Source of the DNA: Escherichia coli O127:H6 str. E2348/69
GTDB lineage: Bacteria; Pseudomonadota; Gammaproteobacteria; Enterobacterales; Enterobacteriaceae
Direction: 5' to 3' (one strand)
Assembly: GCF_000026545.1 (NCBI RefSeq)
Contig: NC_011601.1
DNA length: 64,000 bases
Under the pieces are notes generated by a model. It was not told the DNA's origin, searched no databases, and was given only the letters and a program-made list of their open reading frames with translations. Made by a program: the position numbers and the translations under genes. Numbering within the stretch: position 1 is the first letter of the stretch; every line of letters begins with the position of its first letter. Positions 52,179 through 58,376 of this stretch are shown here, piece by piece.

Positions 52179-53117
52179 TTAACCCACGAGACGCTGATAT
52201 TCTTTGGCAATTTCGCTCGCCAGAATGGCGTTATTAAAGACCAGTTGAATATTGGATTTCAGGCTATCACCGCCGGTTAGCTCCGCAACACGCGCCAGCA
52301 GGAACGGTGTACTCTCTTTCCCAATAACACCCTGTTCTTCGGCTTCAGCAACGGCTTGATCAATTGCTGCATTGATGGTTTCTTCTGGCATCGCAAACTG
52401 TTCCGGGATCGGGTTCGCTACCACCAGGCCGCCGTTCAAACCGGTTTGCCACTTCACTGCCATCGCGCGAGCAATTTCGCGGGCACTGTCAAGACGAATG
52501 CTGACTTCAAATGGGCTGGTTCGGCAGAAAAACGCAGGCAGCGCTTTTGTCTGATAACCAATTAACGGTACACCGAAGGTTTCTAAATATTCTGTTGTTA
52601 ATCCTAAATCGAGAATAGATTTTGCCCCCGCACAAACAACAGTGACATTGGTATTTGCCAGTTCCTGTAAATCGGCAGAAATATCGAAGGTATGTTCCGC
52701 TCCGCGATGCACACCACCAATACCTCCGGTTGCAAAAACTTTAATCCCAGCCAGTGCTGCAATAATCATGGTTGATGCAACGGTAGTCGCGCCATTTTTC
52801 CCTGCAGCAACGACAAAAGGTAAATCACGACGACTAACTTTCGTCACGTTATGTCCTTCACGGCCCAGCAATTCGATTTCTTCTTTACTTAAGCCCACTT
52901 TCATCACACCGCCAATAATGGCGATAGTGGCTGGTACTGCGCCCTGTTTACGAATTGTTTCTTCTACTTCAATTGCGGTTTGGGCATTTTGTGGGAATGG
53001 CATTCCGTGAGAAATTATGGTCGATTCCAGCGCAACAACCGGTTTTTTATTTTTTAAAGCATCCTGTACTTCAGCGGATATTTGTAATAATTCAGGGGAC
53101 AGAGTTAATTCAGACAT
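52179..53117 (-). CDS. psuG: Pseudouridine-5'-phosphate glycosidase
   Basis: 312 aa; start overlaps the psuK 3' end by 13 nt. Confidence 0.9.
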   Translation of the reverse strand: MSELTLSPELLQISAEVQDALKNKKPVVALESTIISHGMPFPQNAQTAIEVEETIRKQGAVPATIAIIGGVMKVGLSKEEIELLGREGHNVTKVSRRDLPFVVAAGKNGATTVASTMIIAALAGIKVFATGGIGGVHRGAEHTFDISADLQELANTNVTVVCAGAKSILDLGLTTEYLETFGVPLIGYQTKALPAFFCRTSPFEVSIRLDSAREIARAMAVKWQTGLNGGLVVANPIPEQFAMPEETINAAIDQAVAEAEEQGVIGKESTPFLLARVAELTGGDSLKSNIQLVFNNAILASEIAKEYQRLVG

Positions 53118-54046
53118 TCTGTGTTCTCCACTAACGATGTAACATTGGCAATTGATAATTCAGGGTTGTTGGTATATTCACAGGCAAGTGCCATTGACGA
53201 ACATCCCTGCGCAAATCGAACAGAATCGATAAACGGCATACCGTCTACCCAACAGGAGGCCAGCCCCGCCATCATGGCGTCGCCTGCCCCAGTAACATTG
53301 ATGACATTCGTTTTAATAGGGGCCGACCACCCACTTTCACCGTTGATATCACTGTAGTAAACGCCATCCCCTCCCATGCTCAGCACCAGGCGGTTCAGGC
53401 CGTGTTGATGAAACCAGGCGGCGACCTTTGCGACATCTTCACGTCCGGAAAGTGCAATTCCGCTCAACGTTTCGGCTTCAAGACGGTTAGGTTTTAACGT
53501 ATGGATTTTGCTCAGATGATCGCGGATTTTGACGCATTTCCATGCCGATACCGGATCAATAAATACAGGCGTTTCCCCGCTATTTTCCAGAACCCAGACC
53601 AGCGCCTCTTCACTAAGGTTGCAATCCGCGACAATAACCTTTGCACCGCGAATAAACTCCTGATGCTGGGCAAGAAATTCTGCAGAAATACAGTCACTAA
53701 TACTCATATCATTTATCGCGACAAGCATTTCTCCTGTATTATCGAGCAGTGATAAATAGCTGGATGTATTCTCACCCGGAACAATTAAGCATTTATCGAC
53801 ATAAACACCGGATTGATTAGTTTGCGCCAGTAATGATTGCCCATAAAAATCACCACCTACTGCACTTAAAAGCCAGGCATTTTTCCCCAGTAACGCCAGA
53901 TTATGAGCGATATTCCTTCCCACGCCACCTGGGGTAAATTTAATTTTTCCGGGATTCGAATCCGCATAATTCAATGGATGATGTGAATACCCAGCCACAT
54001 CAATATTCGCCGAGCCAATAATTACTATGTAGTCCTTTTCGCGCAT
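53105..54046 (-). CDS. psuK: Pseudouridine kinase (PfkB family)
   Basis: 313 aa from MREKDYIVIIGSANID; PfkB motif GGVGRNIAHNLALLG; the track ORF has a 38-codon in-frame upstream extension. Confidence 0.85.
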   Translation of the reverse strand: MREKDYIVIIGSANIDVAGYSHHPLNYADSNPGKIKFTPGGVGRNIAHNLALLGKNAWLLSAVGGDFYGQSLLAQTNQSGVYVDKCLIVPGENTSSYLSLLDNTGEMLVAINDMSISDCISAEFLAQHQEFIRGAKVIVADCNLSEEALVWVLENSGETPVFIDPVSAWKCVKIRDHLSKIHTLKPNRLEAETLSGIALSGREDVAKVAAWFHQHGLNRLVLSMGGDGVYYSDINGESGWSAPIKTNVINVTGAGDAMMAGLASCWVDGMPFIDSVRFAQGCSSMALACEYTNNPELSIANVTSLVENTECLN

Positions 54047-54345
54047 AGCACGCCCCCTGGCAATAAATTGCCAACGAAGAAATTGGGTAAAATAGTCATT
54101 ACAGTCAATAAGACTATTAGAGCACGTGTTCAGATTTAAACACATGTTCATAATAAGCATGTTTAACGTAATGTAAATCGATCAGAAAAAACGAAATCGG
54201 CCAGATATGAAGGCGGTCACAAAATTTGTCTATTTATGCAGCAACAAAAGAGAAAGTTGTGATGTGTAACACACAATATGGCAGGCAAGAAAAAGGGCAG
54301 AGATGTTTCTGCCCTCAGATTGTTGACAATGCGCGCTTTGTTCAT

Positions 54346-54444
54346 GCTGGATGTGGCGTAAACGCCTTATCCGACCTACAAAAGCGCAAAAATTCAATAT
54401 ATTGCAGGGTTCATGTAGGTCTGATAAGCATAGCGCATCAGGCA
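54346..54444. repeat. REP pair between psuK and fruA
   Basis: GCTGGATGTGGCGTAAACGCCTTATCCGACCTAC and GTAGGTCTGATAAGCATAGCGCATCAGGCA. Confidence 0.8.
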
Positions 54445-54501
54445 ATTTTGCGTTTGTCATCATCGGGGCAGAGATGTCTCAGCCCCGATGATGAAGAGAA
54501 A

Positions 54502-56193
54502 TTATGCGTTTTTTTCTACTATTTGTGTTTCCGGGCGTTTGAGGAAGGCATAGGCCAAACCCGCCACCAGCGTACCGGCAATAATTGCTACCAGGTAACC
54601 CAATACCGGCGTAATAGCGCCAGGGATCAGCAGAACAAACAGACCACCGTGTGGTGCCATCAGTTTCGCACCAATCGCCATTGAAATTGCGCCAGTCAGC
54701 GCCCCACCAACGATACAGCACGGTAGCACACGCATCGGATCACGAGCAGCAAACGGAATTGCACCTTCCGAAATAAAGCACAGACCAAGTACCAGAGCGG
54801 CTTTGCCACCTTCCTGCTGCGCTTTGTCGAATTTGCGACGCGCCACCATTGTTGCCAGACCCATTGCCAGCGGTGGCACCATACCTGCCGCCATAATCGC
54901 CGCCATCGGGCCATAGGTTTGAGTACTCAGCAGACCCACACCGAATGCGTACGCTGCTTTGTTTACCGGACCGCCCATGTCAGTACACATCATGCCACCG
55001 AGGATCGCCCCCAGCAGAACCGCATTCGCAGTCCCCATGGTCTGCAGCCAGTGAGTCAACCCATCGAGAATGCCAGCAACCGGTTTACCGATTAGGTAGA
55101 TCATCGCCAGACCGACCACCAGACTGGAAATTAGCGGAATGATCAGGATCGGTTTCAGTGCCTCCATACTCTGTGGCAGTTTCAGTTGCGTACTGATTAA
55201 CTTCGCAATGTAACCCGCCAGGAAGCCCGCAATAATACCACCAATGAAGCCAGAACCGGTGCTAACCGCCAGCATACCGCCAATCAGACCCGGCGTGAGA
55301 CCCGGACGATCGGCAATGGAGAAGGCAATATAACCTGCCAGTACCGGCACCATCAGCGCAAAGGCTGAACCACCACCAATCTGCATCAGCGCCGCTGCCA
55401 ACGTACCCGGCTCTTTAAACGCTTCGATACCAAAAGCAAAAGAAAGCGCGATACACAGACCACCTGCAACAACCATCGGCAGCATGTAAGAGACGCCCGT
55501 CAGCAAGTGACGGTAAGCACCTGCACTCTCTTTCTTACCTTCAGTGGTCGCTGTTTGAGTTTTGCCCGCCGGTTCATACGGCGTTGCTTCAGCAACCGCT
55601 TTATCCAGTTCCTGCGCAGTTTTCTTCAGCGCCAGACCGGTAGAGGTGCGATACATCGGTTTACCAGCAAATTTCGCCAGATCCACTTCGATATCTGCCG
55701 CCACAATCACCAGATCCGCTGCTGCGACTTCTTCAGGGGTGATTGCATTGCCCGCGCCAACAGAACCACGGGTTTCAACTTTCACCCACCAGCCACGTTT
55801 TTTCGCTTCGGTTTCAATGGCTTCAGCCGCCATAAAGGTGTGTGCTACGCCAGTCGGGCAAGCAGTCACCGCAACTACGCGTTTCGGACCGCTGGCAGCA
55901 ACCGGTGCTGTCGCAGCGACCGGCGCAGTGTAAGGTTTCGCATGGCCTTTGGCTTCACTCAGGAACAACTCAGGGTGCGCAACTGCCCGGGAAATATCAC
56001 CCAGCCAGACATTTTTACCGTTCAGCGCGCTGTCATTCGGGATGGAATCACCGAGAACAATCGCCATTTCTGCGTCGTTCGGATTGTCGATGATTTCCAG
56101 TTTTGCTTTTCGCGCCGCCGCGCCCAGCAGGGTCTTCGCCATATAGGCGCGTGCCTGACCGAGATTAGCGTCAATAATCAGCAGCGTTTTCAT
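54502..56193 (-). CDS. fruA: Fructose-specific PTS EIIB'BC component
   Basis: 563 aa; soluble B domains followed by a large hydrophobic C domain. Confidence 0.92.
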   Translation of the reverse strand: MKTLLIIDANLGQARAYMAKTLLGAAARKAKLEIIDNPNDAEMAIVLGDSIPNDSALNGKNVWLGDISRAVAHPELFLSEAKGHAKPYTAPVAATAPVAASGPKRVVAVTACPTGVAHTFMAAEAIETEAKKRGWWVKVETRGSVGAGNAITPEEVAAADLVIVAADIEVDLAKFAGKPMYRTSTGLALKKTAQELDKAVAEATPYEPAGKTQTATTEGKKESAGAYRHLLTGVSYMLPMVVAGGLCIALSFAFGIEAFKEPGTLAAALMQIGGGSAFALMVPVLAGYIAFSIADRPGLTPGLIGGMLAVSTGSGFIGGIIAGFLAGYIAKLISTQLKLPQSMEALKPILIIPLISSLVVGLAMIYLIGKPVAGILDGLTHWLQTMGTANAVLLGAILGGMMCTDMGGPVNKAAYAFGVGLLSTQTYGPMAAIMAAGMVPPLAMGLATMVARRKFDKAQQEGGKAALVLGLCFISEGAIPFAARDPMRVLPCCIVGGALTGAISMAIGAKLMAPHGGLFVLLIPGAITPVLGYLVAIIAGTLVAGLAYAFLKRPETQIVEKNA

Positions 56194-56209: not shown

Positions 56210-57148
56210 TCAGTTAAAAGGTTGTAAGTCGACGCGCGCCATCATTGCGGCCAACTGCGGACGATCGGTAATACCCACATTGCTTTGACTTACCGCCAGG
56301 GCTGCAACAGCTGTCGCCAGACGCAGTGTGTGTTCACTGGATTCACGCATCAGCAAGCCATAAATCAGGCCACCAACCATAGAATCCCCTGCGCCAACGG
56401 TGCTTACGACATCGACTGACGGTGGTTTGGCGATCCATTCGCCGGAGGCATTAACCCAAAGCGCGCCTTCGGCACCCAGTGAAATAACAACATGCGCGAT
56501 GCCTTGTTCACGCAGCGCATGCGCAGCTTCAATCACATCTTTCATTTCAGGCAGTTTACGGCCTGCCCAGATTTCCAGCTCGCGGCGGTTAGGTTTCACC
56601 AGCCACGGTGCCGCTTTCAAACCTGCTACTAACGCTTCACGGCTACTATCAAAGATAATGCAAGGACACTGACTACGCAGGCGAGTCATCCAGTCGGTGA
56701 ACGCTTCCGGGCTGACGCCTGACGGTAAGCTTCCGCTGACACAGACCATATCGAACTGACCGAGCCAGCTCAGAGAATCAGTCACAAAGCGTTCCCAGTC
56801 GGCGGGGGTGACTTCAAAACCCGAGAAGTTGAAGTCGGTCACTTCGCCGTCTTTTTCCGTCAGCTTAACGTTAATTCGGGTGCGCCCCTGTACAACCTGG
56901 AAACGGTTGGCAATGCCCAGCTCGCTGAACAGTTGCTGAAAACCATCCTGATTGTCTTTACCCATGAAGCCGCCAACGGTGACATCAATTCCCAGGTCTT
57001 TTAATACTTTGGCCACGTTGATGCCTTTACCCGCCGCATGCAGACCGGTGGTTTTCACCAGGTTCACTTCGCCGCGTTCAATTTCCGGGCAGAAACCAAC
57101 AAGGTCATAAGCCGGATTAAGGGTGATAGTAGCAACACGTCTGCTCAT
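56210..57148 (-). CDS. fruK: 1-phosphofructokinase
   Basis: 312 aa PfkB-family kinase; start overlaps the fruB stop. Confidence 0.92.
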   Translation of the reverse strand: MSRRVATITLNPAYDLVGFCPEIERGEVNLVKTTGLHAAGKGINVAKVLKDLGIDVTVGGFMGKDNQDGFQQLFSELGIANRFQVVQGRTRINVKLTEKDGEVTDFNFSGFEVTPADWERFVTDSLSWLGQFDMVCVSGSLPSGVSPEAFTDWMTRLRSQCPCIIFDSSREALVAGLKAAPWLVKPNRRELEIWAGRKLPEMKDVIEAAHALREQGIAHVVISLGAEGALWVNASGEWIAKPPSVDVVSTVGAGDSMVGGLIYGLLMRESSEHTLRLATAVAALAVSQSNVGITDRPQLAAMMARVDLQPFN

Positions 57149-58278
57149 TATGCGCCCTCCCCAAGACCAGCAGCGATAGCGTCGCCAATGGCTTTCAGCG
57201 CCTGTTCAGCATCTGCACCCTGGGCGGTAAAGCGTAGGCGATGACCTTTCTTAACGCCAAGTGCCACAACTTTCATCAGACTACGTCCGTTTGCCGGTTT
57301 GCCGGTGCCATCAAGGTTTGTCACGGTAATATCACTGTTAAATTGTTTAATGGTATTGACCAGCATGGTACCTGGACGAGCATGCAGGCCGTGTTCATTG
57401 CGCACCACAAACTCCGCGCTTAACACGTCGTCGGTCGGCGCATCATCGCTGGTCAGCAGCGCCAGCAACGTTGCCGCATCCGCTTTCAGCAAGCGGTCAG
57501 CTTTATTATCGAGCAACAAATCAGCGAGACGCTTAAGAACCGCGATGGGCTGATCGTCATTCATCGCCACACTCACCAGCATGGCTGCCGTTTCGCCGTC
57601 CACATCAAAAGCATTTGCCGCACGGCTTACCGCAATCGCGCTACGCAGATTGCCTTCGGCGCTATCGCTCAGCCAGATACCCTGCCCGAGGTTCAGCGGT
57701 TGTTCATTGATGGCTTTGGTGACGAAAGTGGCGTCAACTGCCCCCGCTTCTTTCAGACGCGCAGCGTTCAGCGCCTGAAGAGTCAGCAGATCGCTGGCGA
57801 CGATATCCAGCGTCAGCATTTCGTTGTCGAGCTTCAGCTGCTCACTCTGCTTTTCGCCCATCAGCAATGCGCGAAGTTCTTCTGCTGTTGTTGCTGACTT
57901 CAGTTGTTCAGCAACGGAATCATCGCTCAGTACGTGGGTCAGCTGGCGTAGCAGGCCCAGATGTTCATCCGAGCTGGCAGCAATACCGATCGCCACGTAC
58001 GCTACCTGGCCGTCACCCCAGGTGACGCCTTCCGGGAACTGAAATACCTGAACGCCGGTTTTCAGCACCTGATCGCGGGTGTCGGTAGTGCCGTGTGGAA
58101 TAGCAATACCATTGCCGAGGAACGTTGAGGTTTGCTGTTCGCGCGCCAGCATGCCATTGACGTAGCCTTCAGCTACATTACCGGCCTGCACCAGCGCCGC
58201 AGCGACCTGGCGAATCGCCTCTTCTTTGTCTCCGGCCTTTTCGCCCGGATGGATGTCCTGTACGGATAACTGGAACAT
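57148..58278 (-). CDS. fruB: Fructose-specific PTS EIIA / FPr multiphosphoryl transfer protein
   Basis: 376 aa; recognised as the fused EIIA-FPr protein. Confidence 0.92.
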
Positions 58279-58292
58279 AGTTCTCCTCTCTT

Positions 58293-58376
58293 GCTGAATT
58301 GAAACGATTCAGCTTCTATGAGAAAAAAGCGCCAACCTGGCTTAGGGTTAAAGACAAGATCGCGCTGAAACGTTTC
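58293..58376. promoter_or_regulatory. Two Cra (FruR)-type operators in the fruBKA promoter region
   Basis: GCTGAATTGAAACGATTCAGC at 58293-58313 and the perfect palindrome TGAAACGTTTCA at 58365-58376, both matching the Cra consensus TGAAWCGNTTCA. Confidence 0.7.

Follow-up and report, generated by a model that had tools for sequence, protein, structure and literature searches.

Look-alike hairpins on either side of a BIME-1 element after fruA in Escherichia coli, probably two copies of one ancestral fruA terminator

How REP and BIME repeats move is a question some 40 years old. The RAYT (TnpA-REP) proteins have been proposed to mobilise REPs and BIMEs by an HUH mechanism, which proceeds without target duplication (PMC3333891, PMC2817692), and REPs are said to lack the signatures of MITEs (PMC3184786). 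The BIME-1 elements of E. coli, also called RIP or RIB, consist of a REP, a linker with an IHF site and an inverted REP; they are extragenic, lie at the 3' ends of operons and vary in presence or absence from strain to strain (PMC1187871). Two effects of REPs on the message that carries them are summarised in PMC12306157, namely the stabilisation of upstream mRNA by REP hairpins (Newbury 1987, as cited there) and the stalling of ribosomes by REPs close to a stop codon (Liang, Rudd and Deutscher 2015, as cited there).

We analysed a 64,000-nt stretch of the genome of E. coli O127:H6 str. E2348/69 (hereafter the window), in which fruBKA and psuKG both lie on the minus strand. The 455-nt spacer between fruA and psuK holds two hairpins with a pair of REPs between them, an arrangement pointed out in an earlier note made from the letters of the window alone. 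We call the hairpin next to fruA H1 and the one beyond the REPs H2. The features discussed below are as follows.

53105-54046, minus strand: psuK (pseudouridine kinase), the next gene (RefSeq annotation of the identical locus)
54150-54177, minus strand: promoter-like site for psuK, TTTACA-16-TATTAT, with 10/12 matches in a consensus scan; predicted, downstream of the terminator
54287-54294, minus strand: U tract of the terminator, UUUUUCUU (sequence and terminator scan)
54293-54316, minus strand: H2, intrinsic terminator stem-loop of fruBKA (terminator scan, folding, alignment, counterpart in K-12 Term-seq)
54295-54314, inside H2: copy 2 of the direct repeat, the H2 core
54315-54465, no strand: BIME-1 or RIP element (alignment, nhmmer, complementarity of the REP arms)
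54458-54493, minus strand: H1, hairpin without a U tract (folding, sequence, genome search)
54466-54485, plus strand: copy 1 of the direct repeat, the H1 core GGGCAGAGATGTCTCAGCCC (repeat search and shuffles)
54502-56193, minus strand: fruA, PTS fructose IIBC, 563 aa, stop codon TAA at 54504-54502 (ORF list and RefSeq annotation of the identical locus)

Both hairpins, and the REP pair between them, are present in the sequence. The arms of H1, CATCATCGGGGC and GCCCCGATGATG, form a 12-bp stem over 54458-54493, followed by a U.U mismatch, three inner pairs (GAG/CUC) and an ACAU loop; in the sense of fruA (54493-54458) the hairpin reads CAUCAUCGGGGC-U-GAG-ACAU-CUC-U-GCCCCGAUGAUG, and as fruA-sense RNA it folds with -29.5 kcal/mol (z = -8.2 against shuffles). 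Its outer 8 bp (CATCATCG/CGATGATG) are an added stem extension, and its inner 20 nt are a copy of the ancestral terminator described below. H1 is adjacent to fruA as the earlier note had said, at a distance of 8 nt rather than 9, the stem beginning at the ninth base, so that a stable structure stands within 15 nt of the stop codon. The sequence after the stem, ACAAACGCAAAAUU, contains no U tract, and the terminator scan makes no call there. H1 therefore does not qualify as an intrinsic terminator, despite having the same hairpin core as H2.

H2 is closely similar to known Rho-independent terminators. Its GGGCAGA/TCTGCCC stem (54295-54314) extends to nine pairs over 54293-54316 and encloses a 6-nt loop, with TTTTTCTT as the continuation on the minus strand; in the sense of fruA (54316-54293) it reads GAGGGCAGA-AACAUC-UCUGCCCUU and then UUUCUU. 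This is a GC-rich stem-loop of 7-9 bp, directly 5' of a U tract and downstream of a gene, and it folds with -15.1 kcal/mol (z = -3.8). The scan called H2, the hairpin for which a minus-strand U-run beyond the REPs had been claimed, and reported it as the sole terminator-like site of the fruA-psuK intergenic region.

The cores of the two hairpins (54295-54314 and 54466-54485) are a 20-nt direct repeat, identical at 18/20 positions with a spacing of 171 nt, and the likeness spans stem and loop. Compared as an inverted repeat they agree at 16/20 positions (80% vs 90% for the direct alignment; repeat family D1), and no comparable direct-repeat pair arose in 100 shuffles of the window. The 8-mer AGAGATGT had earlier been taken for a loop motif common to both hairpins, a description that does not hold, as its first three bases belong to the stem in H2; what the hairpins have in common is an exact 12-mer, GGGCAGAGATGT, within the 20-nt repeat.

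The 151 nt at 54315-54465 fill the entire gap between H1 and H2 and make up a complete BIME-1, with two inverted REPs and an IHF-site linker. In order, there are an end motif TCAGATTGTTGACAATG (54315-54331), a REP (54346-54379), the L linker (54390-54408), the inverted REP (54415-54443) and an end motif GCAATTTTGCGTTTGTCATCATCG that runs to 54465. The linker carries the conserved motif AAATTCAATATATTGCAGG, a predicted IHF site by sequence match, and the REP arms at 54366-54380 and 54414-54428 are 93% complementary (pair I4), as inverted REPs are. Aligned with the copies at mgtA-ridA and fbaA-mscS, the element shows 82-88% identity, and its nhmmer score over the full model is 158.6. Queries that contained BIME-1 gave a median of 21-39 matches per E. 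coli genome, as a dispersed multi-copy element would, and a search of Rfam at 53800-54800 returned only sub-threshold hits, to the REP-derived families naRNA4 and ES036.

At either end BIME-1 has terminal inverted repeats of about 17 bp, T(C/G)AGATTG(T/C)TGACAAAG, seen in the window (54315-54465) and in the copies in L088, L089, L092, L111 and L124; older papers probably refer to them as motifs "A" and "B". These ends give BIME-1 a MITE-like outline, contrary to reviews on REPs. The window insert has every sequence component of a BIME-1, and like other copies it lies outside genes, follows an operon at its 3' end and is present or absent according to strain. Where the fruA copy departs from the element as described, together with the copies at five other loci, is in being bracketed by a duplicated, locus-specific terminator hairpin.

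The origin of the two hairpins becomes apparent from the other enterobacteria. We compared 80 species-representative fruA loci, 75 of them from outside Escherichia. Exactly one GGGCAG..CTGCCC hairpin follows the fruA stop in 35 of these 75 species, with at least four T residues next to it in 34 of the 35, and a pattern search found two such hairpins in 0/75. The single outgroup terminator is GGGCAGAGAtttCTCTGCCC with a T run, typically in the form (A)nGGGCAGAGAtttCTCTGCCC-T6-8. Five of the seven Escherichia-type sequences have two hairpins, always the first without a T run and the second with one; the remaining two are E. albertii, in which the mutated H1 was missed by the pattern, and Escherichia sp. 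MOD1-EC7003, in which a deletion took H2.

The gene psuK is also found downstream of fruA in Citrobacter amalonaticus, C. sedlakii, Enterobacter soli, E. asburiae, Klebsiella and Kosakonia, and a multiple alignment places the single terminator of the psuK-bearing genera, with its downstream flank, on H2 and its flank in both of the E. coli alleles described below. H2 is in this sense conserved as the fruA terminator across the Enterobacteriaceae. H1 stands at the ancestral distance from the fruA stop and has a 5' flank resembling that of a Citrobacter species (CTCTCATCAAAGGGCAGAG vs CTCTTCATCATCGGGGCTGAG). Thus H1 retains the upstream flank, and H2 retains the U tract and the flank on the side of psuK. 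The single outgroup terminator and the alignment of the flanks imply that a single ancestral hairpin gave rise to both H1 and H2, which an insertion now separates. A common origin had been offered in the earlier note as one of two readings of the repeated motif, and it is strongly supported, both hairpins being copies of the one fruA terminator of other genera.

The spacer allele of the window occurs in 1193/5426 complete E. coli genomes (22%), including UTI89, and likewise in E. albertii. Another 4197 genomes have a K-12-type spacer, which is too diverged to align well with that of the window. The switch between alleles starts within the last 12 or so codons of fruA, and the whole spacer and psuK differ (53105-54530; L002 vs L083), with PsuK 88.5% identical between the two classes, about as distant as from Citrobacter. 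In E. coli, then, two alleles of the fruA-psuK spacer form an old polymorphism, and the depth of divergence between the two haplotypes suggests ancient polymorphism or introgression.

The K-12-type allele has the same architecture and no REPs. Its first hairpin, H1' (TGTTACAGGGCAG-AAATTTC-CTGTCCTGTAACA), lies 9 nt after the stop and has no U run; the second, H2' (GGGCAGA-TTATTT-TCTGCCC-TTTTTT), comes after a 121-nt spacer. E. coli has a single copy of this 121-nt insert (L083:1560-1680, and also L004, L006 and L007). It is bounded by 13-nt terminal inverted repeats, TTTGATGA(G/C)GCGC, and the duplication on its two sides is longer and takes in the upstream flank, CAATTTCA standing before both hairpins in L004. 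From these features it looks like a lone MITE-like insertion. Two other assignments of the K-12-type spacer were rejected, that of a decayed BIME-1 (its nhmmer score of -4.8 is within the range of shuffles) and that of a repeated element (it is single-copy). Since in the K-12-type allele the hairpin is likewise duplicated, around a different insert with no detectable similarity to BIME-1, the duplication is not strictly tied to BIME-1. Within one allele, H1 and H2 are alike at 17-18/20 positions, compared with 13-15/20 for corresponding hairpins of the two alleles, and this pattern implies either independent insertions in two lineages or gene conversion between the copies.

In Escherichia sp. 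MOD1-EC7003 (L005:3101-3560), a deletion extends from the spacer into psuG and has removed H2' and psuK. There fruA is followed by the U-less H1' alone, which provides a natural test of H1 alone ending the operon.

Among the E. coli sequences examined H2 does not vary, and in E. albertii one base of it is different. In H1, the innermost C-G pair is broken (C to A) in 725 of the 1193 genomes with the window allele, and in E. albertii a G of the 3' arm is replaced by T; one variant of the outer stem, C to T, keeps a G.U pair. The apical, ancestral part of H1 is decaying while its 11-bp base is kept, because changes are seen in the inner pairs while the outer-stem change retains pairing. The stem extension is perfect over 7-8 bp in both allele classes, in unrelated sequence (CATCATCG/CGATGATG here and TGTTACA/TGTAACA in K-12), and amounts to only 2-5 bp in other Escherichia lineages, including E. 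whittamii. The perfect extensions go beyond what duplication alone explains. Judged from the variants, the kept base and the extensions hint at selection for a strong hairpin at the position of H1. By eye, no general scar of palindromic stem extension was seen at the BIME-1 junctions of other loci.

Transcript ends have been mapped in K-12. Among the 3' ends in the curated Term-seq table of Adams et al. 2021 (PMC7815308) is one at 2259536, minus strand. The sequence printed for it ends ...GGGCAGATTATTTTCTGCCCTTTTTT and so places the end on the last U of the U6 tract of H2'; the end is classed as "orphan" and is present in only one tab of the Term-seq file. No coordinate starting with 22596, the region of H1', is in the curated list, which is thresholded and represents the K-12 allele. 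Because the K-12 3' end falls on the last U of H2' and none is listed at H1', H2 is probably the working terminator and H1 its U-less duplicate, on 3'-end data from an allele without REPs. The layout in the earlier note, of a hairpin without a U tract, then REPs, then the real terminator, agrees with these data, and the mapping of fruBKA mRNA 3' ends that it had proposed as a check is in this way available for a different allele.

A bicyclomycin-sensitive region of Rho termination at 2259533 on the minus strand, with a Rho score of 3.5, coincides with H2' (PMC7815308). Rho may possibly back up the terminator here, in the leader of psuK.

Further copies of BIME-1 were collected by scanning metagenome contigs for the L-linker motif, adding 250 kb of K-12 and searching all of this sequence with a BIME-1 profile, which yielded 13 distinct near-full-length copies, all intergenic. 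A locus-specific GC-rich hairpin is found on both sides of the element in six of them (fruA, ysgA-metE, katE-chbG, fbaA-mscS, mgtA-ridA and lpdA-yacH), on one side only in 5/13 and on neither in 2/13. The two-sided hairpins are direct repeats of 20-30 nt or more; at four of the six loci asymmetry of the loop identifies the repeat as direct and not inverted. Local alignment of the flanks scores 11-18 at the six loci, against a mean of 6.1 and a maximum of 9 in cross-locus controls (n=72), and 0/20 other REP clusters in the same sequence had a flank score above 10. The hairpins lie 0-5 nt from the ends of BIME-1, so that direct, locus-specific repeats abut the insert.

Empty alleles were found at several of these loci. 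At fbaA-mscS, BIME-1 is present in 3719 genomes and absent in most others, where the region is 167 bp shorter; alleles without the element have one hairpin, and those with it a direct repeat of about 40 bp. At ysgA-metE the element is missing from every E. coli genome, leaving one hairpin in each, and an occupied relative has a 19-nt hairpin on both sides. At lpdA-yacH 494 genomes are occupied, and K-12 is empty with one hairpin. The occurrence of empty alleles with a single hairpin at three loci settles the direction of change. An "empty" allele at katE-chbG was set aside, as it carries a different hairpin and is not informative on duplication.

These flanking repeats resemble the target-site duplications of MITEs and insertion sequences in that they are direct, locus-specific and abut the ends of an element with inverted repeats of about 17 bp, and in that the empty site has a single copy, both in the 35 outgroup species and in the empty alleles at other BIME-1 loci. 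They differ in length, which varies between about 19 and 40 bp with the hairpin and is not that of a fixed stagger, and in being found at only about half of the copies. The HUH/Y1 transposition of IS200/IS605 and of RAYT/TnpA-REP likewise involves DNA hairpins and is associated with REPs, although as a single-strand mechanism it gives no target duplication (PMC3333891, PMC2817692) and does not predict this footprint. A duplication of hairpin length fits neither the HUH/RAYT model nor a short duplication of fixed length. We did not find flanking hairpin repeats around BIME-1 described in the literature that we searched, and there may be an earlier account in the BIME papers of the 1990s.

We consider it very probable that H1 and H2 are the duplicated ancestral terminator of fruA around a BIME-1 insertion, with H2 terminating and H1 a relic without a U tract. 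The ancestor would have had one intrinsic terminator just after the fruA stop, GGGCAGAGA-loop-TCTCTGCCC with a T run. A BIME-1 would then have inserted beside the terminator hairpin, leaving the hairpin of about 20 bp on both sides as a direct repeat, in the manner of a target-site duplication; H1 would have kept the upstream flank and been severed from the T run, and H2 would have kept the T run and the psuK-side flank. RNA polymerase would read through H1, which should not terminate for want of a U tract, and through BIME-1, and would stop at the U tract of H2, as happens at the K-12 counterpart. After cleavage or trimming of the 3' UTR, the 12+3-bp stem of H1 could block 3'-to-5' exonucleases, so that the stabilising role suggested in the earlier note is plausible; at 8 nt from the stop, terminating ribosomes might be hindered by it as well. 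The "loop motif" common to the two hairpins would be a leftover of common descent and not a recognition signal. Against duplication as an obligatory part of insertion is the lack of a two-sided copy at 7/13 BIME-1 loci, which implies that duplication is not obligatory or that it decays.

Whatever its origin, H1 could instead be a selected functional RNA, which would either stabilise the message by holding off PNPase, RNase II and RNase R at its 3' side or stall terminating ribosomes near the stop codon and so lower FruA. The very stable stem, the perfect extensions made from different sequence in the two allele classes and the retention of the outer stem while inner pairs decay all speak for such a role. 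So does the likeness to described REPs, since H1 is a stable 3'-UTR stem-loop upstream of a terminator and, at 8 nt, is well inside the 15 nt from the stop codon within which REPs are reported to stall ribosomes (as summarised in PMC12306157, where stabilisation of upstream mRNA by REP hairpins is also mentioned). However, it is for REPs that stalling was shown, and H1 is not a REP and is known here from sequence and folding. Moreover, no 3' end is given in the curated K-12 list where the H1 counterpart has its base, and the extension shrinks to 2-5 bp in E. whittamii and other Escherichia lineages. We regard a selected function as rather unlikely on this evidence. That H1 is instead a double-stranded DNA palindrome for a dimeric regulator, for example of psuK or fruA, we find scarcely credible: it is a perfect 12-bp inverted repeat with a 12-bp spacer, yet pairing ability and not sequence is conserved between the alleles, and the predicted psuK promoter lies more than 280 bp downstream of H1.

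Two further explanations address the resemblance between the hairpins. They could be old tandem terminators kept alike by gene conversion, between which BIME-1 landed with no duplication upon insertion; this would account for the greater likeness of H1 and H2 within than between alleles and for two different inserts between the same hairpin pair in the two allele classes. We nevertheless think it improbable, given that two copies occur in none of the 75 outgroup species and that three other BIME-1 loci have one hairpin where the element is absent and, where it is present, two that abut its ends. The second possibility, raised in the earlier note, is that some protein or RNA partner common to both hairpins recognises the shared AGAGATGT loop. 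The 8-mer is indeed identical in both window hairpins, but the identity covers 20 nt of stem and loop, as duplication predicts. H1 of E. albertii has AGAGATAT, and the K-12-type alleles have the loops AAATTTC and TTATTT. The 8-mer is barely to mildly enriched in the window (five occurrences vs 1.2 expected), and by folding the other three lie outside hairpins, against a family of hairpin loops with this 8-mer. H1-like sequence was found at the fruA locus only, in 1193/5426 E. coli genomes, which also ruled out H1 as a dispersed repeat; and Rfam, at permissive thresholds over 53800-54800, had no family matching either hairpin. A recognition role is thus very unlikely.

Returning to duplication of the terminator, its meaning at the fruA locus is modest. 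It accounts for the odd pair of look-alike hairpins as a terminator and its duplicated relic, and taken alone this would be ordinary biology. The wider interest is that fruA clearly exemplifies an insertion footprint which recurs, has possibly gone undescribed and bears on the movement of REPs and BIMEs. It is possible, and we put it forward tentatively, that BIME-1 and at least one other small inverted-repeat element integrate at terminator hairpins in a structure-dependent manner, with the whole hairpin (19-40 bp) duplicated and its length set by the palindrome. If so, the duplicated hairpin would be a molecular footprint of REP/BIME spread, neither that of HUH/RAYT nor that of a classical DDE-type MITE. 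With every insertion a U-less "orphan" terminator hairpin would be left by a stop codon, open to later recruitment by selection, as the extensions of H1 hint. The recurrent pattern also shows BIME-1 insertions routinely turning working terminators into U-less hairpins near the stop codon. The footprint can be counted (6/13 loci, three with single-hairpin empty alleles, and absent at other REP clusters) and could be used to test models of insertion.

A few observations were made on either side of the spacer. Just downstream of the predicted -10 element of psuK, at 54120-54150 on the minus strand, is a tandem repeat of the form GAACA(T/C)GTG..TTTAAA, which is also kept, as GAGCACATGTTTAAATATGAACACATGTTTAAAC, in the otherwise diverged K-12-type allele. 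It looks like a candidate operator for some regulator of psuKG. A literature search on the fruBKA terminator and on an sRNA from the fruA 3' UTR gave nothing relevant. At the other end of the operon, the 5' leader of fruB (57148-58278, minus strand) contains a small hairpin, GCCAGGUUGGC, with a U run at 58322-58343 on the minus strand, 44-65 nt upstream of the fruB start. The K-12 Term-seq data have a strong "orphan" 3' end at the site that matches this hairpin, 2263539 on the minus strand, and the peak there scores about 7 times as high as the one at the fruA terminator. The hairpin could be a leader attenuator of fruBKA or the end of a short leader transcript.
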